Origin: an uncultured Chloroflexia bacterium
GTDB lineage: Bacteria > Chloroflexota > Anaerolineae > JAAYZQ01
DNA length: 64,000 nucleotides
Direction: 5' to 3'
Assembly (NCBI GenBank): GCA_963700285.1
Contig: CAVOXA010000010.1
Location: 96,001-160,000 of the forward strand
This document shows positions 7,963-64,000 of this stretch, piece after piece. Within the stretch, counting starts at the first letter, position 1. Each line of letters opens with the position of its first letter. The notes below the pieces were generated by a model. The model was given only the letters and a program-made list of their open reading frames with translations. It was not told the origin of the DNA and searched no databases. The translations under genes were made by a program, and so were the position numbers.

Positions 7963-10665
7963 TTGGGTGCCAGAATGGGACATGGGAGTACTACATTGAG
8001 CGACAAGATCAGGATCGAAATCTCCTGGCTGCTACCCCAGGGTAACGCCTGTGAGTCCTGCTGGCATAGATGGGAAGAAAGTGTCCGAGCCTACGGAGGC
8101 GTAGAACGGGTACACCTGGACCAGGAAGGCGAGACCCCCAGCTTTTGCATTCACTACGATCCAGGCCTGATCAGCCCGGATATTGTGCGGGCCATTGCTG
8201 TCGAGGAAGGCGCCCATTTGGACTGGCGCTATCGTCACGAGATCTTGTCCATCAGGGGGATGGACTGCGCCGATTGCGCGCGGACGCTGGAAGGTGGCGT
8301 TGGGCGCCTGGATGGCGTGTTGTGGGCCTCTGCCAACTTTGCCGCGTCTACCCTGGCTGTCGAGTACGATGCCGAGTGGACAGAACGCCCAGCCATCGTA
8401 TCCCGTATCCGCGCCCTGGGCTACGACCTTCAGGCACCTGCGCCCTCCCGTGAAATGGTTTATCAGGTCGAGGGTATGGACTGTGCTGACTGCGCTCTGA
8501 ATCTGGAAGAGGCGCTCAGACGCACATCTGGCGTGGCCCAAGTGACCGTGGACTTTACCCTGGCCCGGCTGCGCCTCACAGCCGACGATGGCATGGAAAT
8601 CGACTCGGCTGTCCACCAGGCTGCGGAAAGCATGGGCTACTCACTCCGGTCGCAGGATACCCGATATCCCGGCGGGACCAGCAGTGTTGAGGGCTGGCGA
8701 GAGCGGCTGTGGCGCAGGCGCCGCGATCTGACGACCGTGGGCTCTGCGCTGCTGATTGCCGCAGGCGTGATCCTGGGCTTGCTGGGAGCGCCTGAGGCGA
8801 TTGTAGCCGGCACGTACGTGGCAGCGATTCTCGTAGGTGGCTTCTATATTGCCCGGTCCGGATGGGCCGCGCTGCGGACGGCTCACTCCCTCGACATGAA
8901 CGCATTGATGACCATCGCCGCAGTAGGTGCGATTTTCGTCGGCGAGTGGGCCGAGGGCGCGGTGGCCATGTTCCTGTTCTCCCTGGGCAACTCCCTGGAA
9001 GGCTATACGATGGACCGTGCCCGGAATGCCATCCGGAGCCTGATGGAACTCTCACCCCGCCGGGCTACCCTGATCCACGGGGATCAGGAGGAAGAGGTAC
9101 CGGTCGATGATCTGGTCGTCGGTGATCGAATTTTGGTACGGCCCGGCGAGCAGATTCCAATGGACGGGGTGGTACTGACGGGCTCGTCGGCTGTGAACCA
9201 GGCCCCAATCACCGGCGAGAGTGTACCGGTGGAAAAGGGGACAGGTCAGGAAGTCTATGCCGGCACGGTCAACGGCCAGGGAGCGCTGACCGTGCGCGTG
9301 ACCCACCTGGCTGCTGACACGACCATCGCCCGCATTATCAAGATGGTGGAGGAGGCCCAAGCCCAGAAAGCCCCCTCGCAGCGTTTCGTCGACCGCTTTG
9401 CCCGGGTATACACGCCGGCGGTGATCGCGGTGGCGGCCAGTGTAGCGATAGTGCCGCCGTTATTCGGCTGGCTAACAGGTACGGGTACCTTTGCTGCCCT
9501 GTTTGGTGAGTGGTTCTACCGGGCCCTGGTGCTGCTGGTGATCGCCTGTCCCTGTGCCCTGGTCATTTCTACGCCGGTCACCATCGTGAGCGCTATCGCC
9601 AGCGCAGCTCGCTCCGGCGTGTTGATCAAAGGCGGCACCCATCTGGAAGCTCTGGGCTCACTAAAGGTGATGGCCTTCGACAAGACCGGTACCCTGACCG
9701 CCGGCCAGACGCAGGTGGTGGATGTCCGCTGTCTGGATCACCAGGCAGGATTGGTCTGGACAGAGTGCCCCGATTGCAGGCGCATGCTGGCCGACGCGGC
9801 GGCCGTCGAGCGCCGCTCGGAGCACCCGTTGGCCCGGGCTGTAGTGCAGACAGCCGAGGAGCAGGGCCTGGCCCATGCCTTGCCAGCAGCGGAGGAGGTG
9901 GAGGCCCTGACCGGGCGTGGCGTACGGGGCCGGGTGAATGGCCACAGCATCACAGTCGGCACTCATACCTTCATCCACGAGAGCGATCCGGATCTGGTTG
10001 AGGGCCCTCTGTGCGATGCTGTCCATGCCGCCCAGGACGCTGGCCAGACGGCGATGGTCGTCCGTGACGACTGCTGTGGCGTGCGCGGCTATATTGCTGT
10101 GGCCGATACGATGCGTCCAGGGGTGCCAGAGGTGATGGCCGCCCTGGCCAGAGTGGGCATCGAGCACACGGTTATGCTGACCGGCGACAACCAGGCCACG
10201 GCACAAGCCGTCGCCGCAGCCGCGGGGGTAGACGATGTGCAAGCTGAGTTGTTGCCCGAGCAAAAGGTGGCAGCCATCGAGGCTCTGTTGGAAGAGTATG
10301 GGGCCGTAGCCATGGTGGGTGATGGTGTCAACGATGCTCCCGCCCTGGCGCGAGCGACGGTGGGTATCGCCATGGGCGCCGCTGGCACCGACACCGCGCT
10401 GGAGACTGCTGACGTGGCCCTCATGGCCGACGATTTGGGCAAGCTACCCTTTGCCGTCAGACTTAGCCGGCGAGCGCGGGCCATCATCCTGCAGAATATC
10501 GCCCTATCGCTGGGCATCAAGGCCGTCTTTTTCGCCCTGGCCCTATCTGGAACGGCGACGCTGTGGATGGCTGTCTTTGCTGACGTGGGCGCATCGCTCA
10601 TCGTCACCCTCAATGGAATGCGGCTGCTACGACAGCAGGAAAAAGCCATGCCAGGGCAGAGCTAG
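7963..10665 (+). CDS. Heavy-metal translocating P1B-type ATPase (Zn/Cd/Pb class)
   Basis: Two GMDCADC HMA domains, TGES, CPCAL, DKTGTLT, SEHP, GDGVNDAPAL, TM8 FADVG; exact start uncertain. Confidence 0.96.
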   Translation: MGARMGHGSTTLSDKIRIEISWLLPQGNACESCWHRWEESVRAYGGVERVHLDQEGETPSFCIHYDPGLISPDIVRAIAVEEGAHLDWRYRHEILSIRGMDCADCARTLEGGVGRLDGVLWASANFAASTLAVEYDAEWTERPAIVSRIRALGYDLQAPAPSREMVYQVEGMDCADCALNLEEALRRTSGVAQVTVDFTLARLRLTADDGMEIDSAVHQAAESMGYSLRSQDTRYPGGTSSVEGWRERLWRRRRDLTTVGSALLIAAGVILGLLGAPEAIVAGTYVAAILVGGFYIARSGWAALRTAHSLDMNALMTIAAVGAIFVGEWAEGAVAMFLFSLGNSLEGYTMDRARNAIRSLMELSPRRATLIHGDQEEEVPVDDLVVGDRILVRPGEQIPMDGVVLTGSSAVNQAPITGESVPVEKGTGQEVYAGTVNGQGALTVRVTHLAADTTIARIIKMVEEAQAQKAPSQRFVDRFARVYTPAVIAVAASVAIVPPLFGWLTGTGTFAALFGEWFYRALVLLVIACPCALVISTPVTIVSAIASAARSGVLIKGGTHLEALGSLKVMAFDKTGTLTAGQTQVVDVRCLDHQAGLVWTECPDCRRMLADAAAVERRSEHPLARAVVQTAEEQGLAHALPAAEEVEALTGRGVRGRVNGHSITVGTHTFIHESDPDLVEGPLCDAVHAAQDAGQTAMVVRDDCCGVRGYIAVADTMRPGVPEVMAALARVGIEHTVMLTGDNQATAQAVAAAAGVDDVQAELLPEQKVAAIEALLEEYGAVAMVGDGVNDAPALARATVGIAMGAAGTDTALETADVALMADDLGKLPFAVRLSRRARAIILQNIALSLGIKAVFFALALSGTATLWMAVFADVGASLIVTLNGMRLLRQQEKAMPGQS

Positions 10666-12994: not shown

Positions 12995-13705
12995 TCAATC
13001 AGGCAGTGGCAGCCCGGGCTGTTTGTGACGCTGTAACCCCAGGACCAGGGAACGGACATCACTGGACAGCCGGAATGCAAGCCCCTTGGGTACGACGGCC
13101 AGTTCCCCGCTCTCGAGGTCGTACTGCCCGTGTTCCGTCTCCAGAATCAGCTTCCCATCCTGGCAGAAGACCAGGCTATCTTGAAGGTCTGTCTGCTGCC
13201 AGGGTCCGGTCCCCTCGTAGAAAGCCAGGTGGACGGAAAAGGTGTCCAGATTAGCCAAGACCACTGGCCTGAAAGGAACGACGATTTGGCGCCCCATGGC
13301 CGGCACGCTGACCTTCTCCAGGTTCCTCCCTTCCTTCAGGGAAAAAATCCGACGATCGCCATTGCGACGATTGACCATCAGCCGCGGCTGGAGGAGGAGG
13401 ACTTGTGAATGCAAAAGGGACGAAGAGCGGTGCCCCACTCCTTTGGGCGCCACGGCCAAATCACCAGGCCGCAGGATCGTGGTTCCCCAGTCGCTCTCGA
13501 GGCTGATGGTACCGCTGTAAACCAAAAAGAGTTCATCCTGGTCCAGGTGGCGATGGCGGGGCAGCGTTCCCGCGCACAGAAACACGCTCAAGACCAGGTC
13601 ATCGATCGACGCCAGGTCGATCATGGTGAACGGTTCTGTCAAACGGCCAGCGTGGTCGGCAACGCTGATGACCTCGAGTTCTTGGGGTTCTGCCACGGTT
13701 TTCAT
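12995..13705 (-). CDS. Bicupin protein
   Basis: [10 protein letters not shown]...PKGVGHR in the first cupin; degenerate second cupin (VVPKG). Confidence 0.85.
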
Positions 13706-14265
13706 CCCAGTCGTGCAGGTGTTATGTCCTGCTGAGCCTGGTATTTCCCCTGCTTGTCGGCATAGGATATCTCACAGGCCTCGTCACTTTCGAAAAAAAG
13801 TACCTGAGCGATCCCCTCGCAAGCATACAGGCGTACCGGCCTGGACCCAACGTTAGCGATACACAGGGTTGCGTTGCCCTCCCAGCCAGGCTCAAAGGGG
13901 GTAACGTTGACCATGACACCACAGCGAGCATAACTGCTCTTGCCCGTGCACAGGGTCAAGACATTCGATGGGATACGGAAATACTCAATCGTCCGGCCCA
14001 GGACAAAGCTCTGGGGTGCCAGCTCAAACACGTTGGTGCGCGTATCGACAAAAGCAGCGGCAGACATTGCCTTGGGGTCTACCAGACCCTGGCCCGCCCC
14101 GCCAGCAACCAGTACTTTGAACTCATCCGCCAGGCGGACGTCATAGCCATAGGACGACAGGCCATAAGAGATGACGGTTCCCCCTACCTGTGCCGGCTCA
14201 AAGGGTTCAATCATGCCCTGTTCCAGGGCCATACACCGGATCCACCGATCAGATTTGATACTCAC
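13702..14265 (-). CDS. dcd: dCTP deaminase
   Basis: [48 protein letters not shown]. Confidence 0.97.
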
Positions 14266-14423
14266 ACGCGCCTCTCAACTACTCCGGTGGTTGCCCACAA
14301 ATAAGGTCACAGTTACATGAGCCGTTTGGACTCGCCCCTCGACAAGCTGCGGGTGCCGCTGCACGGTTGCAAGCCGCCCGCATTATACTCGATAAACCCA
14401 AAAGAGACAAAGGTGCAATCTCG

Positions 14424-15266
14424 TCATTGGGCACCTTCAAGGACCAGATTGTCTATCAGGCGGGTCTGGCCAACGAATGCAGCCAGGGACAACAATGCGT
14501 TGCCAGTGATGGTTTCCAGCTCCTGGAGCGTGTCAGGATGGGCGCAGGAAACGTACTGCAGGCGAACCCTGGGCTCGTCTGCGATGGTTTCGGCCACGAT
14601 CTTTCGCAATCTTTCGGCGCTCCGTTCCCCAGACTCAAAGGCTGTCCCGGCTGCCACCAGTGCACGGTACAGCACAGGCGCCGCTTCGCGCTGCTTGGAA
14701 TCCAAAAAGGCGTTTCGGCTGGACAGCGCCAGGCCATCCAGATCACGCACGATGGGACACACGATGACGTCCAATGGGAAATCCAGATCGCGCGCCATCT
14801 GCCGTACGACCGCAACCTGCTGGGCATCCTTCTGACCAAAGTAGGCGCTCTGGGGTCGGACAGCGTTGAACAACTTGGCCACCACTGTCGCCACGCCTCG
14901 GAAATGGCCAGGACGCATTGCACCCTCCAGCAGCCGCGCCACCTCCTCCACTGTGACCCACGTTTGAAAACCGCTCGGGTACATCACTTCGGGGCTAGGC
15001 ATCCAGACCAGGTCTATGTTTTCCGCTTTCAGCAGGTATAGATCCCGGGCCAGGTCGCGGGGATAGGAGGACAGGTCTTCGTCGGGCCCGAACTGAGAAG
15101 GGTTCACAAAGATGCTGACCGCTACGCTGGCACATTCGGCCCGAGCACGCCGTACCAGCGACAGGTGACCTTCGTGCAGAGAGCCCATGGTGGGGACCAG
15201 GCCCACCGGTTCGGCAAGGGTTGCCCGAGCGCTGCGCACCTCGAAAAGGGTGATGGCGGTTTGCAC
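14424..15266 (-). CDS. panC: Pantoate--beta-alanine ligase
   Basis: VPTMGSLHEGH, SIFVNPSQF, RPGHFRGV, FGQKDAQQ, GLALSSRN; GTG start assumed. Confidence 0.97.
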   Translation of the reverse strand: MQTAITLFEVRSARATLAEPVGLVPTMGSLHEGHLSLVRRARAECASVAVSIFVNPSQFGPDEDLSSYPRDLARDLYLLKAENIDLVWMPSPEVMYPSGFQTWVTVEEVARLLEGAMRPGHFRGVATVVAKLFNAVRPQSAYFGQKDAQQVAVVRQMARDLDFPLDVIVCPIVRDLDGLALSSRNAFLDSKQREAAPVLYRALVAAGTAFESGERSAERLRKIVAETIADEPRVRLQYVSCAHPDTLQELETITGNALLSLAAFVGQTRLIDNLVLEGAQ

Positions 15267-49981: not shown

Positions 49982-52308
<2,327 letters not shown>

Positions 52309-52405
52309 CCTAGTACTGGACCTCCTCGTCGGTCGTTTGCGCGCCGCCTGGGCGCACCGCGCGCGGCGGAAGGGGAGTATCTTGGCCTGGTTTTGGCCAG
52401 TAAGT

Positions 52406-52639
52406 TCAGTCTCGGGCAGCGCTCGGATCGACCAGCCATCCTGCGGCCTCGTGGTAGAGCAGCTCAAAGCGCTGGCCTGTCTCCGTCCGGACGCAAAAGG
52501 CCGGGCCATCCGGCGTCCGCCAGCGGCTCTCGATACGAGTCACCGGATAGCGCTGCCCCTGCCACAGCACGGCCCTCGGTTCCTGGGCATAGGTATGGCC
52601 GGAATAGCATTCGACCCGAGCGGCTTCCTGGTCAGCCAC
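52406..52639 (-). CDS. Small hypothetical protein (DUF6504-like)
   Basis: VECYSG.....P....WQG.RY.V......WRTP. Confidence 0.7.
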   Translation of the reverse strand: MADQEAARVECYSGHTYAQEPRAVLWQGQRYPVTRIESRWRTPDGPAFCVRTETGQRFELLYHEAAGWLVDPSAARD

Positions 52640-53640
52640 GGCCCTGGGCAAAGTCCAGCCGGGCCGAATCGCCCACGTTCAGCACCCGGTAGCGGCCTCG
52701 CACCACGGCATCTTTGCCGATCAGGGAACGATCCAGCATCGTGTCGTCGATATAGGCTCCCTCGTCGATGATCGAGTCGCGGACGATGGAGCGCAGGACC
52801 ACGGCTGTTCTCGGCAATCGTGACGTAGGGGCCAACGATCGAATGCTCCACCCGGGCTGAGGGGGCAATATACACCGGCGGGATGATCACCGAGTCCGGT
52901 GACGCAACCTCGCCGCCATTGTCCCGGCCGTGCTCCAGGAGATAGCGGTTGGTCTTGAGCACATCCTGGGGCGTGCCGCAGTCCTCCCACACCGACACCT
53001 CTCGCACGCCAAAGCTCGCGCCCTGCTCGATCATTACCGTGAAAGCATCGGCCAGGTAGAATTCGCCCTTGGTCTGCATGTCGCGCTCCATCAGCTCTTC
53101 GATGGCCCGCAGTCAGCCAGGCTCCATCGCGGATATAATAGACGCCGACAATGGCCAGTCGGTTCTCAAAGGTATCGGGCTTTTCCACCAGGCCTGACAC
53201 CAGCCCGTCATCCCCGAGCACAGTCACCCCAAAACGGCGGGGATCCTCCACCTCCTTGACGTAGAGCATGCCATCCAGCCCTGAAGTCTCCAACCCGCTC
53301 AGATCCGCCTCAAAGATGTGTCCACAAAGATGATCAGCACGGGCCCGTCCAGGTACTCTCGGGCCAGCCAGATGGCATGGGCTTGGCCCAGGAGTTCTTT
53401 CTGTTCCACGTAGCGGGCCGGATAGGGATAATCGCTGGCCTCATAGTACTCCTGGATCTGCTCGCCGAGCCAGCCGACGATAAAGATCAGCTCGTCGACC
53501 TCTACGTCCAGGTCAGCCAGCTTGTCCAGGATGTGGCCCAGCACCGGCTTGCCGGCCACGTTGACCAGCGGCTTGGGTTTGGACCAGGTGTGGGGCCGCA
53601 TCCGCTTGCCGAACCCCGCCAGGGGAATGATGACTTTCAT
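52632..53640 (-). CDS. Sugar-phosphate nucleotidyltransferase with LbH C-terminus, frameshifted
   Basis: IIPLAGFGKRMRPHT..KPKPL, LGQAHA, DPRRFGV, VEKP, GEFYL, WEDCG, hexapeptide tail. Confidence 0.92.
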
Positions 53641-53671
53641 GTTTTCCTGTATCTCCTGTGATGATTGCCAA

Positions 53672-55139
<1,468 letters not shown>

Positions 55140-55143
<4 letters not shown>

Positions 55144-55437
55144 CCGTCCGCCTCCAGCACCACCGGCACCCGGAAGCAGTCCTCCTCCACGCTCGGGGCG
55201 TTGGCCAGCACGTCGGCCAGCGGCAGCGAGGGCTGCGACCTCGTCATCGCGCATGACGTTTTCCAGGGGCAGAACGGTGGCCGTGGGGGGAATGGCCGCG
55301 GTATCCAGTTGCTGCAGGCGCTCGGCATAGGCCAGGATAGAGGACAGCTGCTCGCGAAACAGTTCTTTCTCCTGGTCGCTCAAAGCCAACTGGGCCAGTT
55401 GGGCCACGTGTTCCACTGCTTCAGAGCTCAGTTTCAC
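55140..55437 (-). CDS. gatC: Asp/Glu-tRNA amidotransferase subunit C, frameshifted
   Basis: VEHVAQLAQL, QLSSIL, NVMRDD, LANAP....FRVP. Confidence 0.93.
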
Positions 55438-55680
55438 GGCAGAGATCGCCTCCCCGAGGATCTAGGGCTTTTTGGACAAAGCCTGGCGCCGCTATTATAG
55501 CACCTATTCAGGCAAACAGAAAACAGCCGCTGGCCCAGGGCAGGCAACTCGCACTGGGTACTGGCAGACAAGGCGTAACAGACGGTTGGGGCGCCGCACG
55601 GCGTCGACGAGGATGCACCAGAGGGTCCGAATGCCGGTACTTGTGGGGTTTCCACGTGGGTTTCGACCGAGTACTGGGGA

Positions 55681-56139
55681 TCAGGTACTTACCACCAAGA
55701 CCGCACCTGCTGCCTCCGGGTCAAAGGTGACCGACCATCTCGTGTACTCGTCATAGCGCGCGCCCTGCAGATCGGCCCCATTCAGATCGGCATGGTACAA
55801 GTTGGCCCCCACGAGGTGGGCATCGCCCAAGTCGGCCTCGCTCAGGTCGGCCTGGCTCAGGTTGGCCTCAGCCAGATTCGCCCCCCTTAAAGTAGCCCCT
55901 TTCAGGCAGGCATTGGACAGTTCGGCCTCCTCCAGCGTGGCCGCTGACAGATCCACCCCTGACAGATCCCCGCCTGCCACGTTGGTCTTGGTCAGGTCCG
56001 CCCCGCTCAGATCCGCGCCACTCAGGTCAGCCCTGTACAGCCCCAGATCTGACAGGTCGCGCTCCTGCAGATCCAGCCGTTCTCCCCGCTCCCGGGCCCG
56101 CTTGGCCAGTTCCAGAACATCCGCTACCAGTAGTTTCAC
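55681..56139 (-). CDS. Pentapeptide-repeat protein
   Basis: ADLSG/ANLAE repeats; C-terminal W...FDPEAAGA; AGGAGG RBS. Confidence 0.93.
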   Translation of the reverse strand: MKLLVADVLELAKRARERGERLDLQERDLSDLGLYRADLSGADLSGADLTKTNVAGGDLSGVDLSAATLEEAELSNACLKGATLRGANLAEANLSQADLSEADLGDAHLVGANLYHADLNGADLQGARYDEYTRWSVTFDPEAAGAVLVVST

Positions 56140-56587: not shown

Positions 56588-57049
56588 CTATCCCTCAAGC
56601 TCCTGCTTCTTGGCCAGATACTCCTCGGGGGTGATGATCCCCTTGTCCCGCTGATCCTCGAGCTTTACCAGCTCTGCCTCGGTCTCCGAAGCGGACAGTT
56701 GGCTGGCCTCGGATGGGTGGACGCCAGTGGAGGCCCGCATAGCGGCCTCGGCGCCTGCCGGGTAACCCGGTACCTCTTTGCGCTTGTTGACAATCTGGCC
56801 CCACTTCATGATGTCAAGCACGACGCCCAGGAAAACCCACATCCAGTCCCAGCCGGCCACCCCGAGCCCGGGACTCCAGGCCAGGACGTACATGATCGTC
56901 GTGTAGGGCAAAAAGATGAGACCGAGCAGCGGCACGATGAACGTGTCAAAGGCGGCGTTCACCCGATCGCCAACGATCCACATGAAAGCCAATACCAGCC
57001 GCGGCGCGAACGCCGCACCCATCGCCAAGAGACAACCACAACCTAGCAT
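56588..57049 (-). CDS. Membrane protein with C-terminal SHOCT domain
   Basis: PRL..., PLLGLIFLPYTT; LVKL...RDKGIITPEEY.AKK; AAGGAGGAGG RBS. Confidence 0.85.
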   Translation of the reverse strand: MLGCGCLLAMGAAFAPRLVLAFMWIVGDRVNAAFDTFIVPLLGLIFLPYTTIMYVLAWSPGLGVAGWDWMWVFLGVVLDIMKWGQIVNKRKEVPGYPAGAEAAMRASTGVHPSEASQLSASETEAELVKLEDQRDKGIITPEEYLAKKQELEG

Positions 57050-57300
57050 AATGAAACCTCCTCCTTGATTATTTGTCAGTTGTTGGAGTTGCAGCGCCAA
57101 CAGCTGAGATCACCACCGCAGTCTGATTACCCTGCGTGTCAGGCAATTTCTATTCCATCAGGGGTACAATGATTCTCATCTGACTCTCGTCGTGCTCAAC
57201 TGACCGGATACACTGGGCCTGGGCGGCCCCAAGGTCGAGCAGACCAAATGGTATGGGGGATTATAGCATATGAGCGGCAGGTACACAAGCCATCCAGGTG

Positions 57301-57489: not shown

Positions 57490-58707
57490 CTAACCTGATC
57501 TGACGAGTACTACGGCAACCGCCGTCACCACGATCAGCAGCGCGGCCGGTACCATGCGCCGGTAGATACCGCCCCAGGTGGCCCGAAAGTAGACCCGGGT
57601 CAGCGCCAAGCAGAGGTGAACGGGGGACAGCAGCAGGCCCACGTAGCCGCCGGCGTAGGCCAGCAGGCCACAACCGCTGGCCACCACGTCGGGTCCGCAC
57701 AGGGGCAGGACAATGGGAAAGCCGATGGCAAAGGCGGGCAGGGCCAGCCCCGTCAGCAACCCGGCCACCAGGGGAACCGTGAAGACGATTACGTAGACAG
57801 GGATGCCCAGTTCGGCAAAGCCCGCCGAGACCGCCTCCACCGCGCCGCTGCTCTCCAGGACGCGGCGAAAGACCATCGTCCCCACGATGATGGGCACCGT
57901 GCCCAGGGGCATGGCCCGCGCCAGGTCCCACAGCACGCGCGGCCCCAGGCGGTAGGCGGCGATCAGGGCAGCAATGGTCAGCACCAGCGACAGGATCAGG
58001 TCCAGGCCCAGCACAATGGACAGCCCCAACACCATGACAATGGGCCAGATGCTCTTGGCCAACAACAGGAGCGACTCCCTGCGATCGGTTCCTCCCTCAT
58101 CGGCTGCGGCCTTGGCCCGACTGATCCCGACCAGGCCAAACAGGATGCCGCCGGCCAACGTGGCCAGAAAAAGGGGCCACTGGGTCATGGTCAAGGTCTG
58201 GGGCGAGGCCCCCATCAGGCCGGCGGCCAGGACCAGCGAGGGATAGAGCGGGAAGATGGTCTCCAGGGAGTGGCGGAACCAGTAGTTGACAAAGGTTTTC
58301 CGCTCCTGGCTGAGGTTCAGGCCCTGGCTGGCTTCTTCCACCATCGGCGCGGAAAACATTGCCCCGCCTATCATCGGCAGTAAGCCGATGAGCATGGGCA
58401 AGATAGCCAGCAGCCAGCGCCGGTCCACAAAGAGGTCGCTGAGGGAGCGGATGAGTCCCTCCATTTGCAGCGTGCGGCCCAGGATCAGACCCAGGTAGGT
58501 GATCAGCAGCACGATGGCCACCAGGCGCAAGGTGAGGGGATCCACAGCCGCCCCCAGGGCATCCAGGGCCAGGTCGCTGAGAGGGCGCCCAAAGAGCAGG
58601 CCGGTCGCCAGCGAAGCCAGGAAGAGGACCAGGCCAACGTTCCAGCCGAACCGGAGCAAAAAGATGATGATGGCCAGAATGCCCACGAGCTTGACCAAGT
58701 CAAGCAT
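57490..58707 (-). CDS. DUF401-family (ion transporter superfamily) membrane protein
   Basis: PMLIGLLPMIGGAMFSAPMV, NYWFRH, LSPVHLCL.LT..YF. Confidence 0.9.
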   Translation of the reverse strand: MLDLVKLVGILAIIIFLLRFGWNVGLVLFLASLATGLLFGRPLSDLALDALGAAVDPLTLRLVAIVLLITYLGLILGRTLQMEGLIRSLSDLFVDRRWLLAILPMLIGLLPMIGGAMFSAPMVEEASQGLNLSQERKTFVNYWFRHSLETIFPLYPSLVLAAGLMGASPQTLTMTQWPLFLATLAGGILFGLVGISRAKAAADEGGTDRRESLLLLAKSIWPIVMVLGLSIVLGLDLILSLVLTIAALIAAYRLGPRVLWDLARAMPLGTVPIIVGTMVFRRVLESSGAVEAVSAGFAELGIPVYVIVFTVPLVAGLLTGLALPAFAIGFPIVLPLCGPDVVASGCGLLAYAGGYVGLLLSPVHLCLALTRVYFRATWGGIYRRMVPAALLIVVTAVAVVLVRSG

Positions 58708-59296
58708 GTGGCTGGTCGCCCATCTCGGCTATCACTCGTTCCAGATCCTGGATGGCCTCAGCCAGTTCATCGGCCAGCGGGTGCTGGCCCAACCGCTCTC
58801 GAACCAGGGCGCCAACGCTCAGGTAGTACCAGAGGGAAGGCCCTGGCCCGCGCGAGAAATGGCTCCAGAGCGAGGGTCCGTATAGACCCAGATCCCGGGC
58901 CAGGGATCTGGCGCTGTGCAGGGCATCTGCGGCCTTGACGGCCACCGCGTCAGGGCTGGCCGCACGGACCTGGGCCAGCACCTCCCGCTTTCGATCCTCC
59001 CAGGGGCGCTCCACACCAGCCTCCAGCTTTCGCTCGGTGACAGCGGCGACGAGCTCGGCGACGCTGGGGCCAAAAACAGCCTCAATGCGGGCCAGGGAAA
59101 TGTCCTGATCCTCGACGACATCATGCAGTAGCCCGGCGACAACCACCTCCTCTGCAAAACCATGGCGCAGCAGAATGGTGGACACGTGTACCGGGTGCAC
59201 GATATAGGGTACGTCCCCCGCCTTGCGATCTTGATGGCGATGGGCCTGGGCCGCCAGGGTCAGGGCAGCTTCGTAGCGTTGTGAAAAAGCCTTCAT
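58700..59296 (-). CDS. HD-domain RelA/SpoT-type small hydrolase
   Basis: AH..Q.RK...PYIVHP, GLLHDVVED, FG..VA..V..VTE, W..RK, VKAAD. Confidence 0.9.
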   Translation of the reverse strand: MKAFSQRYEAALTLAAQAHRHQDRKAGDVPYIVHPVHVSTILLRHGFAEEVVVAGLLHDVVEDQDISLARIEAVFGPSVAELVAAVTERKLEAGVERPWEDRKREVLAQVRAASPDAVAVKAADALHSARSLARDLGLYGPSLWSHFSRGPGPSLWYYLSVGALVRERLGQHPLADELAEAIQDLERVIAEMGDQPHA

Positions 59297-59544
59297 ATCG
59301 ACTCCGGCCAATGGGCAATTGAACCGGCCTGTGATGGAGCTGGCCTGCGCGCCCGTCCCGCGAGTGGGGATTATAGCACCAGCCTGGCAGATCCACAAAC
59401 AGCCACGCGCCCCAGATTGGACAGATCTAGCCTGTCATGGTTTCGTTGAAGAGGATCGGCATGATCCAACTCGTGGGCAAGGGGCCATCCGAAAAGGGAG
59501 CGGAACATGAAGACGATCCAGCGGGCCTGGGATTGGTGGGCCGT

Positions 59545-59796
59545 TCAAACCTCGAACGCCTTTTCCCCAGCCTCCACGGAAAAGGGCAACCAGGTCTCTA
59601 CCGGCGCCAGGGGGCAAACCCACTGCTCGTTGTAGGCGCAGGAGGGGTGCGACTTGAATAGATCGTTCCTCGCCGCCCGGAATGCTTCCCAGGCGCTCGC
59701 CTGCCCGGCTGGCGGCGCCTTCCGCACGGAAGCGTACATCTCGGCTACGGTCCGGCGCCAATGCGCCAGGGCAAGGGGATCGCCCGGTGTCGTCAT
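59545..59796 (-). pseudogene. DUF1684-family gene with in-frame internal deletion
   Basis: N-terminal WRR.V...Y...R..LF..HP joined directly to the C-terminal PSCAYN..W.CPLAP...L...V.AGE; only 83 aa. Confidence 0.7.
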
Positions 59797-61097
59797 GATT
59801 CCAGTACCTTTCTGAGGCCCCACTGGGCCCGGCCACGAAGGCCCCACCACACGACCATCGTCTCGACCATGAATCCGAATAACAAGGCCGCTACACCCCG
59901 CGTCGCACCATAGACTCCCAGGAGCGGCAGGAGGAGCAGTGCGACCAACACGGCCACGACGCGAGCGGGTGCGCTGGGCGCCATGGCCTGGGTACGGCGC
60001 TCGAACAGCCCGATGCCATGCAGGTAGGCGCGGGCCATCACCACCAGGGGGAAGAAGGTAAAGACCACCAGCGGCATCGCCGCGGCTGCCGCCAATCTGG
60101 CATCGACGCCGAGCAGCGTGCTCAGGATAAAATCCCGGACGGGTGTCCAGAATAGCAGAATCATGACGCCAAAGGACAGCAGCCCGCACCCGAGCGCAAA
60201 GCGGCGGATGTGTGCCAGACTGTTTTCCCTGTCCTGGAATGCAGCCGGCAGGTTCCGGATCTCATTCAGCCAGCCGTAGGGCAGGAGGCCCAGGGCATAG
60301 GTGATGGTCAACACAGCCAGCGCCTCGGTCCCGCCCGGTTCTCTGGCCACAAAGAGGTTGATGAGCGGCCGGCTCAAGCCCTGGATGGCCATGATCAGAG
60401 CCAGGGGCCAGAAAAAGCGGATGATGTAGGAAAACGAAAGGTCAGACCCTGGCTCCCGCAGCAAGTGATCTGCATTACGCCAGTTTCCCCAAATGACAAC
60501 AGCCAGCTCGGCGAGCGCGCCGGCATAGATAACCAAAATGGGCAAGCGGATTGGATCGGTCTGTACAAAGGCGGTTGGCAGCAGGGCGAACACAGCCAGC
60601 GTACTGGCACCCATGCTGACAAGCATGGCCAGGCTGACCACACCGGTCCGGCGGATGCGGAGCAGCAATCCTGAATGGTACCAGGCCAACCCCCTGAGCA
60701 AGGGGAGGGGAATCAGCCAGAGGATCACCGTCCGAGCTGCAGCGCCCAGGCTCCGGCTGACACCGTGCAGGTCCTCGATCACCCAATTCCCCAACGGTGT
60801 CAGCACCAGGCTGGCCAGGATGGCCCCCAGCAGCAGCCCGAAGAGCAGGACAAACCAATGTACCCGTTTGAAGGCCTGCCGGCCGTCGACCAGCACCAGG
60901 CCCAGTTGCCTGGTCTGCAGCATGGTCGTCGTCAAAAAGCTCACCAGGAACCAGGCCAGGCCAAAACTGGCCAGGGTCTCTGTCGCTCTTGGCAAACGGG
61001 CCATGCCGCCGTTCAGTACCTGCGTGCCCAACTCCTGCACCACTGTCATCAGGACCAGGGGCAGGAGAAAACGAATGAGTTCGATATATATCATCAT
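59793..61097 (-). CDS. ANKH-like multipass transporter (MATE/MOP fold)
   Basis: Multiple hydrophobic helices; blocks [22 protein letters not shown]...[29 protein letters not shown].GAT match recalled animal ANKH. Confidence 0.85.
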   Translation of the reverse strand: [434 protein letters not shown]

Positions 61098-61124
61098 GCC
61101 GCCAGTGCGCGCATTGTAGCACAC

Positions 61125-61454
61125 TCACAACTGTTCGACAAAGCGAGAACCTGCGACATCCACTGACGCGCTCTCTGATGAGATTTGGATCGGGATCGTC
61201 GGTACACTCGGATGGGCGGAGAGAAAGGGGACCAGTACTGACTCGGGCTGCTGCCCGGTTTGGTTCCGGTCGTCCGTCATGACGCCAAAGCTCAGCAGAA
61301 AATCCAACATCTCTTGCAGGTCGAGGAACATGGCGCTCTTGCCGCTCTGCACATGGTCAATCTGGCCACGCCAACGCGGTCCGGCGACGGACCATTCCCA
61401 CCAGAAGCGCACGACAAAGGTACTGGCCGGTACGACAGAAAGGGGCGCTTCCAT
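61125..61454 (-). CDS. Small hypothetical protein
   Basis: TFVVRFW...WRGQIDHVQSG...F.DL..ML.FL, a motif recalled beside STAND/SARP regulator loci. Confidence 0.72.
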   Translation of the reverse strand: MEAPLSVVPASTFVVRFWWEWSVAGPRWRGQIDHVQSGKSAMFLDLQEMLDFLLSFGVMTDDRNQTGQQPESVLVPFLSAHPSVPTIPIQISSESASVDVAGSRFVEQL

Positions 61455-62487: not shown

Positions 62488-64000
62488 CTAATGCGGTTCG
62501 ATGACGACATCCTTCCAGGGCGGCGTAGCCATGGTCGATATTGAATACCTGCTCACCCACGGTTTGACCAGGCGGTGGATCGACACGTAGGTGAGGGGCA
62601 AGATCCTCACCTCCTCTATCAGATTCTTTTCCGCTTGCCCATAGAGCCTCATTCTCTCCGGTTGGTCCGTGACCCGCCTAGCCGCTTCTATCAGCCTCTC
62701 GCAGCTTCTGTCCCCCCACCCAATGCACCAAGGAATCGTACTCGTCCTCAAAAAACTGTCGGGATCGGGGTAATCGGCGAGCCACCCCGCGGCGAGCATT
62801 TGTGGCGGGTCGCCGAGCATCCAGCCCCACCAGGTCTCCCCTTCTACGACTTGCCAGGAGAGCTCTACGCCCAGGAGCTCCTTCCATCGCGCCTGCAGGT
62901 ACTGGAGATGGGGAAGAAGGCCGGGCAATCCCATGGCCTCAACAGCGGGGAAGCCACGACCTCCAGGAAAGCCAGCCTCAGCCAAGAGGTCACCCGCCCG
63001 GTCGGGACGGTACGGCAGACCGATCCCAAACGAGTGGCCTGGCATTCCCGGCGGCACGAATCCACCCGTGGCGGGCAGATCGTAACCCCTCAGGATCACG
63101 TCGGCCAGGGTCTCCTTTTCTGTGGCCAGGGCGAAGGCTCGGCGCACCCGCACGTCATCGAAAGGCGGTCGCCTCACGTCAAAGCCGACATAGCTCGTGC
63201 TGAGCCTTGGTACCCGGACATATTCCCTGGGATGGGCCCGGCGTGCGGCGTCCATCTCCGCTGGAGAAAGACGGGCAAGGTTCAGGATGTCCAGTTGGTC
63301 AGCCTCATACCTCTCCAGTGCGGCAGACGTCTCCATCTCGAGCAACAGGGTCAGTTCCACCCGCTGTACATTGCCCCCAAAGCGGCCATGATATGCTGGA
63401 TGCCGCGAGAGGATGATCCTCTCGCCTGGATGCCAGGACTCCAGTCGGAAGGGTCCATTGGTGACAGTATTCCCCTCCTCGGTCCAGGCTTTGCCCAGCC
63501 TCTCCACGACATGCCGGGGTACAGGCAGGGTGACAGGGTTGGCCAACAGGTAGAGAAAGTAGCCCGTTGGCCCCTCCAACTCTACTTCCAGGGTGCTGTT
63601 ATCGAGAGCCCGTACCCCCACCCGATCTGGATCGGAAGCCTCACCGCGATGGAAGGGTTGGGCTCCTTTCACGTCATAAAGCAGGTTGGCCACCGTCGAC
63701 CCGGTGGCCGGGTCCAAGGCGCGCTTCCAGGCGTATTCAAAATCGCGCGCGGTCACCGGGACGCCATCGCTCCATCGCACGTCGTCCCGGAGATTGAAGA
63801 TGTATCTACAGCCCCCGTCAAGGACTTTCCAGGTCCGGGCCACATCAGGCAAGACGTCCATCTCTGGGCTCAGCGTCACCAGCCCGCTAAAGAGTTGCTG
63901 GACCAGCTCAATGGAGCCCTGCGCATCGGCAAATGCCGGATCCAGGCGCGTCGCCGCGTCTGTCCAATGCGTCCTAAGGGCATGGGGCGCTGGGGTGAGC
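62488..64000 (-). CDS. Family-5 (OppA-like) solute-binding domain; ORF open beyond window edge
   Basis: LDPA...LFSGL, WSDG.PVTA.DF, NGPF.L..W, PPFDD.RVRRA, W.ADYPDP; frame open to 64000 (LTPAPHALR...). Confidence 0.9.
   Translation of the reverse strand, partial: LTPAPHALRTHWTDAATRLDPAFADAQGSIELVQQLFSGLVTLSPEMDVLPDVARTWKVLDGGCRYIFNLRDDVRWSDGVPVTARDFEYAWKRALDPATGSTVANLLYDVKGAQPFHRGEASDPDRVGVRALDNSTLEVELEGPTGYFLYLLANPVTLPVPRHVVERLGKAWTEEGNTVTNGPFRLESWHPGERIILSRHPAYHGRFGGNVQRVELTLLLEMETSAALERYEADQLDILNLARLSPAEMDAARRAHPREYVRVPRLSTSYVGFDVRRPPFDDVRVRRAFALATEKETLADVILRGYDLPATGGFVPPGMPGHSFGIGLPYRPDRAGDLLAEAGFPGGRGFPAVEAMGLPGLLPHLQYLQARWKELLGVELSWQVVEGETWWGWMLGDPPQMLAAGWLADYPDPDSFLRTSTIPWCIGWGDRSCERLIEAARRVTDQPERMRLYGQAEKNLIEEVRILPLTYVSIHRLVKPWVSRYSISTMATPPWKDVVIEPH

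Follow-up and report, generated by a model that had tools for sequence, protein, structure and literature searches.

The DNA analyzed here (the window, 64 kb) lies within a 2.15-Mb contig of the genome of an uncultured Chloroflexota bacterium (7.05 Mb, 89% complete), and its principal feature is a minus-strand gene with an intact frame that encodes a 434-aa predicted transporter (hereafter P0001), located exactly where the first-pass annotation had placed it (Table 1). An additional in-frame GTG is present at 61124. The start codon is preceded by a promoter-like site; one such site was detected against 0.9 expected by chance, and position alone makes it a suggestive candidate. The in-frame reading across the -10 element of this site is also kept in a same-genus genome, L003, despite the different genes upstream, where a lactate racemase gene lies immediately 5' of the transporter gene and a frameshift splits the transporter gene itself. 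The adjacent DUF1684 gene, which is intact in L003 and encodes 212 aa there, carries an internal in-frame deletion in the present genome that is either a real loss or an assembly error. The methyltransferase gene remnant that follows, corresponding to a gene that is intact in L003, where it occupies the other strand (8031-8975), represents a second deletion in this genome.

Table 1. Coordinates of the features of the window.
Feature	Position	Strand	Description
Housekeeping-like genes	~50000-55500		dCMP deaminase-, UPRT-, aminotransferase-, sugar-nucleotidyltransferase- and GatA/GatC-like genes (by eye), seemingly frameshifted
Pentapeptide-repeat protein	55681-56139	-	under every curated NCBIfam family cut-off
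SHOCT-tailed membrane protein	56588-57100	-	at least 4 paralogs in the genome
HD_4 protein	58700-59296	-	stand-alone, RelA/SpoT hydrolase-like
Methyltransferase gene remnant	~59400-59545		
DUF1684 gene remnant	59545..59796	-	83 aa; ATG overlaps the transporter stop (ATGA)
ANKH-family (PF07260) transporter gene	59793..61097	-	434 aa; ATG at 61097, stop at 59793-59795; predicted 12-helix MOP fold
Promoter-like site	61113..61141	-	-35, 17-nt spacer, extended -10 TGnTACAAT; end 16 nt 5' of the ATG
ORF with SBP_bac_5 domain	62488-64000	-	long, open at the window end; terminal solute-binding domain

Among the other genes of the window, the HD_4 gene likely encodes a small alarmone hydrolase and is preceded by TGCTATAAT, an extended -10-like site that is conserved in a same-genus genome. 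The long ORF with the SBP_bac_5 domain is possibly the C-terminal portion of a larger fused protein, and no obvious permease genes are found downstream of it. The apparent frameshifts in the housekeeping-like genes suggest long-read errors. Contamination or recent transfer as the source of the transporter gene is ruled out by its location on the 2.15-Mb contig among bacterial genes, the lack of introns, native codon use (GC3 and codon adaptation at the 80th and 50th percentiles, respectively, of long ORFs sampled from its own contig) and the syntenic orthologue in a same-genus genome, which differs by 75 synonymous and 41 non-synonymous codons. In metatranscriptomes, four short near-identical contigs from three runs map onto the gene; these data are unstranded and come from runs that were found using this very stretch, one of which also covers other places nearby, with all run shares below 0.2.

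A Pfam scan of P0001 yields a single family, ANKH (PF07260), with a score of 196.5 bits (cut-off 22, E 1e-57) over positions 10-344 of the 344-position model, whereas no match to MatE (PF01554), MurJ (PF03023) or polysaccharide flippases was detected at E<=0.1; the NCBIfam scan of the same protein produced no match. The first-pass annotation had proposed a full-length colinear resemblance to human ANKH, and the six bacterial motifs that it quoted are all present, at residues 7, 42, 229, 257, 273 and 390. With vertebrate ANKH sequences standing in for the human protein, the colinearity is borne out over about 430 residues: BLASTP aligns P0001 with catfish ANKH (P0182) at 37% identity over 438 columns (268 bits), the identity to pufferfish ANKH (P0183) is 37% over 435 columns, and in a global alignment with an unnamed vertebrate-type sequence (P0198), 169 of the 429 aligned residues (39%) are identical. 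By quarter, the identity to P0198 is 33, 35, 53 and 37%, the peak corresponding to TM7-TM9, and the local alignment score of 704 compares with a maximum of 64 in 300 shuffles. In the reciprocal direction, a tblastn search of the 7-Mb genome with catfish ANKH returned the transporter gene as the best hit (222 bits) and no other at E<=0.1, and when the same protein was used to query the ESM Atlas, the top feature hit was a Chloroflexota ANKH cluster. The two MatE and four MurJ proteins encoded in the genome reach at most 26.6 bits against P0001 (E 0.14-2.3 for the MATEs in BLAST) and no more than 20.4 bits when compared with vertebrate ANKH, and P0001 is not among the six PF03023 matches in this genome. 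Thus, at the level of best hits, the protein does not fall among ordinary MATE or MurJ proteins, and the view that it is a close prokaryotic relative of ANKH, far beyond MATE-level similarity, is upheld. On the Pfam ANKH model, P0001 scores above the choanoflagellate proteins from Monosiga (166.6 bits) and Hartaetosiga (169 bits), whereas 14 more distant prokaryote-type representatives score between 22.9 and 81.9 bits and one further long one gives no hit. Judging from these comparisons, P0001 is almost certainly a member of the ANKH family.

At least 431 homologs were found at E<=1e-5 among 7999 scored candidates; the best 120 of these 431 show 55-100% identity, or 55-91% for the 119 other than P0001 itself. 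Named homologs come from Anaerolineae and Latescibacterota, with Gemmatimonadota added by a further search, and the databases already recognize the resemblance: 3 of the best 120 of the 431 homologs carry the JGI label 'progressive ankylosis protein' and the ESM Atlas includes clusters named ANKH. The distribution of this bacterial clade is patchy. Strong matches to PF07260 were obtained for 3 of 41 near relatives, for 2 of 301 genomes of the phylum and for none of the 14 control genomes, which include all the archaea that were sampled. Class-wide, the family profile matches 17 of 401 genomes at E<1e-90, 10 of them in one genus, with the next values down at 1e-41, and among 121 genomes from the phylum to which a Latescibacterota genome belongs, 33 match at E<1e-100. 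A diverged copy of the close clade is present in ten genomes of one genus of the same class (g41; L127-L135 and L138), several of them single-contig, and these genomes are a useful source for a tractable homolog. In the plasmid and viral collections searched, no copy was found, hence there is no sign in these collections of a mobile vehicle.

Beyond the close clade, three deeper bacterial groups (P0253, P0270, P0279 and their relatives), one of them from Planctomycetota, possess the four C-lobe arginines and have weak PF07260 scores; these groups comprise an unnamed wider ANKH-like lineage. The more distant bacterial tiers (e.g., the Planctomycetota group) differ from P0001 in reaching no more than 82 bits on PF07260 and being 19-25% identical to vertebrate ANKH. 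A deeper tier is also represented in the same genome by a second, distant ANKH-like MOP transporter (L002; G000:C13, ~13500-14800), which scores 22-28 bits on PF07260 and lacks most of the arginine set. Compared with the bacterial ANKH-domain proteins annotated in databases, P0001 is a member with no difference of kind, and TCDB presumably files a bacterial entry under 2.A.66.9. A literature search of mainly openly accessible papers found no study on bacterial ANKH, no ANKH structure and no transport assay for any bacterial member; 'bacteri' does not occur in the main text of PMC13356900, PMC11417794 or PMC7371198 and occurs once, in relation to the gut microbiome, in that of PMC12632560. The gene adds one more member, among hundreds, to a bacterial group that databases list but that seems not to have been studied; the size of the clade and its existing database labels limit the interest of this single gene.

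For phylogenetic analysis, 1.84 billion representatives were searched with a profile and without filtering, which produced 339 clusters at E<=1e-30, and the best 150 of these 339 were retrieved. Ten of these 150 clusters were looked up and correspond to Sycon, Monosiga, Hartaetosiga, a EukProt transcriptome entry, a Planctomycetota protein and five nameless entries; Hydractinia ANKH was obtained through a separate search. The ANKH-family proteins P0203, P0185, P0186, P0229 and P0228 come from a sponge, a hydrozoan and two choanoflagellates. In the hydrozoan there are two paralogs, both located on a single chromosome-scale contig, and UniRef names the Monosiga protein 'RFT1 homolog'. A FastTree phylogeny was built from 163 rows after the removal of 41 short or partial ones, and 67 of these rows were picked for IQ-TREE, most of them unnamed and assigned to groups by tree position and sequence. 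In the IQ-TREE phylogeny, 25 close bacterial and 23 eukaryote-type rows are united with support of 100/98, and this joint clade sits within three successively deeper bacterial groups. The same grouping is recovered in a quick mixture-model tree (SH-aLRT 96) and in a 42-row tree with genuine MATE and MurJ proteins as the outgroup (99/96), the type of phylogeny that the first-pass annotation had proposed as a check. The AU evidence against alternative placements of the bacterial clade is borderline, with p-values that are optimistic given that the tree groups were named after the FastTree phylogeny had been seen: 0.032 when the clade is moved to the outgroup, 0.057 when it is swapped for the next bacterial group and 0.065 when it is joined to MATE/MurJ.

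The non-vertebrate eukaryotic ANKH proteins (Hydractinia, Sycon, Monosiga, Hartaetosiga and EukProt), which are 28-38% identical to P0001, form one supported clade with the bacterial group and lie nearer to animals in the tree than the bacterial clade does, apart from two or three rows on long branches whose placement is uncertain. Accordingly, the tie is to eukaryotic ANKH broadly, including sponge, hydrozoan and choanoflagellate proteins, and the animal-specific framing of the first-pass annotation is not supported: choanoflagellate and other eukaryote-type sequences sit between bacteria and animals, and a clade of bacteria and animals alone receives AU p-values of 0.053 and 0.001, so that an animal-specific transfer is not supported either. 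Its broader suggestion of a possible cross-domain transfer is implied by the grouping of the bacterial clade with eukaryotic ANKH. We infer that the ANKH family is probably of bacterial origin and would have entered eukaryotes before animals arose; the extant bacterial clade could be the sister group of the eukaryotic proteins, their donor or the recipient of a transfer back, eukaryote monophyly receiving AU p-values of 0.49 and 0.081. In a zebrafish study, no invertebrate Ankh was found in Ensembl, which left the origin of the family in vertebrates (PMC11417794); the present data would shift it back to early eukaryotes and bacteria.

The AlphaFold2 model of P0001 (130-row alignment) is all-helical, with a mean pLDDT of 93.6, and is consistent with 12 membrane helices; the hydropathy profile contains 11 detected peaks, and basic residues cluster in alternate loops. 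In the predicted topology, the 12 membrane helices are divided equally between two lobes and the N- and C-termini both lie inside, and the model has the MATE/MurJ-like fold of the MOP superfamily. In PMC9333335, ANKH is designated SLC62A1 (TC 2.A.66.9) and assigned a MATE fold. Among known structures (Foldseek, VIA-align), the top match is MurJ (Z 26.6, rmsd 3.1, 396 aligned residues), followed by human MATE1 (Z 25.5). MurJ uses cavity arginines and has two helices beyond the 12. P0001 has the MOP fold in common with these transporters over about 400 aligned residues, but is only 10-17% identical to them in structural alignments, and canonical MatE and MurJ members are separately encoded in the genome. 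The copy of the PDB that was searched by sequence and by profile holds no sequence relative of P0001, which makes the earlier proposal to use this protein as a structural model a sensible one.

The structural match with MurJ, as well as the cavity arginines that both proteins would employ, raises the alternative that P0001 is a MurJ- or Wzx-like flippase for an anionic lipid-linked glycan. We regard this as very unlikely: the ranking separates MurJ from human MATE1 by only about one Z unit, the two extra helices of MurJ are absent from the 12-helix model, the Pfam scan detects neither MurJ nor a polysaccharide flippase, four separate MurJ-family genes are present in the genome, and a single glycosyltransferase-type hit was found among 119 neighbor proteins. 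The same fold would also be expected of a common MATE-type multidrug (cation) efflux pump with a chance resemblance to ANKH, and the AU p-value of 0.065 for the tree that joins the clade to MATE/MurJ, which reflects uncertain root placement, leaves some room for such a pump. This scenario is nevertheless hardly credible in view of the lack of a MatE hit, of the contrast between 268 bits to vertebrate ANKH and E-values of 0.14-2.3 to the MATEs of the same genome, and of the conserved arginines, which would disfavor cationic drugs.

Those arginines stand out in alignment A1, which consists of 125 bacterial rows and is biased toward near relatives of P0001: R243, R356, R379, Q239, N247, W276 and E412 are invariant in all 125, and position 281 is R or K throughout. 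Arginine or lysine at positions 243, 281, 356 and 379 is found in 25/25 rows of the close clade and 12/12 animal-group rows; since the quartet is also present in 9-10 of the 10 more distant bacterial rows (compared with 1-4 of 9 outgroup rows), it marks a broader group rather than ANKH function as such. More specific to the close clade and eukaryotes are W276 (48/48), N247 (47/48) and Q239 (44/48), which occur in 4, 2 and 0 of the 10 distant bacterial rows, respectively. The C-lobe signature derived here (Q-x3-R-P-x2-N in TM7, W-x2-E-x-R in TM8, R in TM10 and TM11, and E in TM12) is present in P0001. With vertebrate ANKH (SLC62A1, TC 2.A.66.9, PF07260), the bacterial protein has in common R243, R281, R356 and R379, together with Q239, N247, W276, E279 and E412, as well as the predicted MOP fold. 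Two parts of vertebrate ANKH are absent from P0001, namely, an acidic tail at the C-terminus and a short extension at the N-terminus that includes P5. In addition, the loops of P0001 are shorter, and the charged set R36, K60, D168, R204 and R252, conserved in animals and expected of a vertebrate-type exporter, is replaced in it by G30, S53, S161, E197 and G240.

In the genomic neighborhoods of 103 homolog loci, no neighbor family is generally recurrent. DUF1684 and HD-domain genes accompany the transporter only in two close relatives and the other neighbors vary, so that a conserved operon is rejected and the adjacency with DUF1684 is a local link only. A Pfam scan of 119 of the 149 selected neighbor ORFs revealed a mixed set with many catabolic enzymes; organic-acid and sugar-acid enzymes are frequent (DHDPS-type aldolase, mandelate racemase/enolase, SDR, lactate racemase and PEPCK), a signal that was obtained with no background set and from genomes likely rich in such enzymes, whereas there is no recurrent nucleotidase or phosphatase, only one PhoX. 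Conceivably, P0001 could import organic or sugar acids that feed the adjacent catabolic enzymes, using the same cationic cavity inward, given that homologs are often co-oriented beside aldolases, dehydrogenases, amidohydrolases or lactate racemase. This possibility appears unlikely because the neighbors vary by locus and the upstream region of the gene examined here is a different one, where a separate promoter-like site precedes the gene; furthermore, to our knowledge, all characterized members of the MOP superfamily are exporters or flippases.

The conservation of R243, R281, R356 and R379 between bacteria and animals suggests organic-anion transport, and we consider it fairly likely that the substrate is an anionic small molecule. 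Under the mechanism that we propose, P0001 would be an alternating-access transporter of the 12-helix MOP fold, with a central cavity lined by R243 (TM7), R281 (TM8), R356 (TM10), R379 (TM11) and R63 (TM2), along with Q239, N247, W276, E279 and E412, all of which would bind the anion; the placement of these residues in the cavity follows from helix spacing and the known MOP architecture and is accordingly putative. The two lobes would then rock, as in MurJ and MATE, to free the anion on the opposite side of the membrane. Transport would be directed outward, and the cargo would be small organic polyanions, e.g., carboxylic acids. We estimate the probability that the function is export of carboxylates at roughly 45%, the preference for export over uptake and for carboxylates over ATP being the weakest parts of this explanation. 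A presumably less basic cavity in the bacterial protein than in the animal ones is the reason for favoring carboxylates over ATP. In HEK293 cells, the release of citrate by ANKH exceeded that of NTPs by a factor of at least 100, and malate and succinate were released as well (PMC7371198).

The full-length identity of 37-39% (with 53% in the quarter spanning TM7-TM9), the arginine set common to animals and the four identical residues among the six mappable disease positions (see below) would also fit a protein that functions as vertebrate ANKH does, with release of ATP or other nucleotides in addition to citrate. Such activity seems quite unlikely for P0001: four basic residues of the animal proteins (R36, K60, R204 and R252) are missing, no ectonucleotidase or phosphatase recurs among the neighbors (one PhoX in 119), and a steady loss of ATP would presumably be costly for a free-living bacterium. 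The bacterial protein could be used as a simple model of ANKH.

In animals, ANKH is the membrane protein behind the release of citrate and ATP and behind tissue mineralization; it controls the extracellular levels of citrate, ATP and pyrophosphate and causes chondrocalcinosis and craniometaphyseal dysplasia. The human variants listed in a 2026 review are P5L/T, M48T, L244S, C331R, S375del, F377del and G389R, and this review describes the structure-function relationships of ANKH variants as poorly defined (PMC13356900). The disease positions, the mapping of which had been proposed as a check in the first-pass annotation, were transferred through P0198, which has the wild-type residue at each listed variant number. 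Four of the six mappable positions are identical in P0001 (human L244, C331, F377 and G389 correspond to L232, C304, F349 and G361), S375 corresponds to T347 (Ser in 72 of the 125 bacterial rows), and P5 is unaligned. The remaining position, M48, corresponds to T41, so that the bacterial protein natively carries the residue of the CPPD allele. Threonine at this position is found in 117 of the 125 bacterial rows, 7 of 11 choanoflagellate and other non-animal eukaryote-type rows and 3 of 12 animal-group rows; hence the CPPD allele M48T likely matches the ancestral residue. This match might explain the reported gain of function of M48T; the reference list of the review also cites an effect of M48T on PiT-1 binding (PMC13356900).

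These strands can be combined in a single evolutionary scenario that we present as speculative and rather unlikely to hold in full: ANKH would be a bacterial invention, and the present clade would be the extant lineage that is sister to, or the donor of, every eukaryotic ANKH; eukaryotes would have obtained the protein before choanoflagellates and animals diverged, and the bacterial clade would already export polyanions such as citrate via the same arginine cavity; animals would have added basic residues for ATP release, and M48T would be a reversion to the ancestral Thr. If this scenario is true, it is through the bacterial protein that a structure and a mechanism would first become available for ANKH and for its disease alleles. 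More generally, a compact bacterial protein that is 37-39% identical to the vertebrate proteins and keeps most of the disease positions makes questions about ANKH testable in E. coli, in proteoliposomes and by cryo-EM, namely, whether ANKH transports its substrates directly, what drives the transport and how the mutations act.
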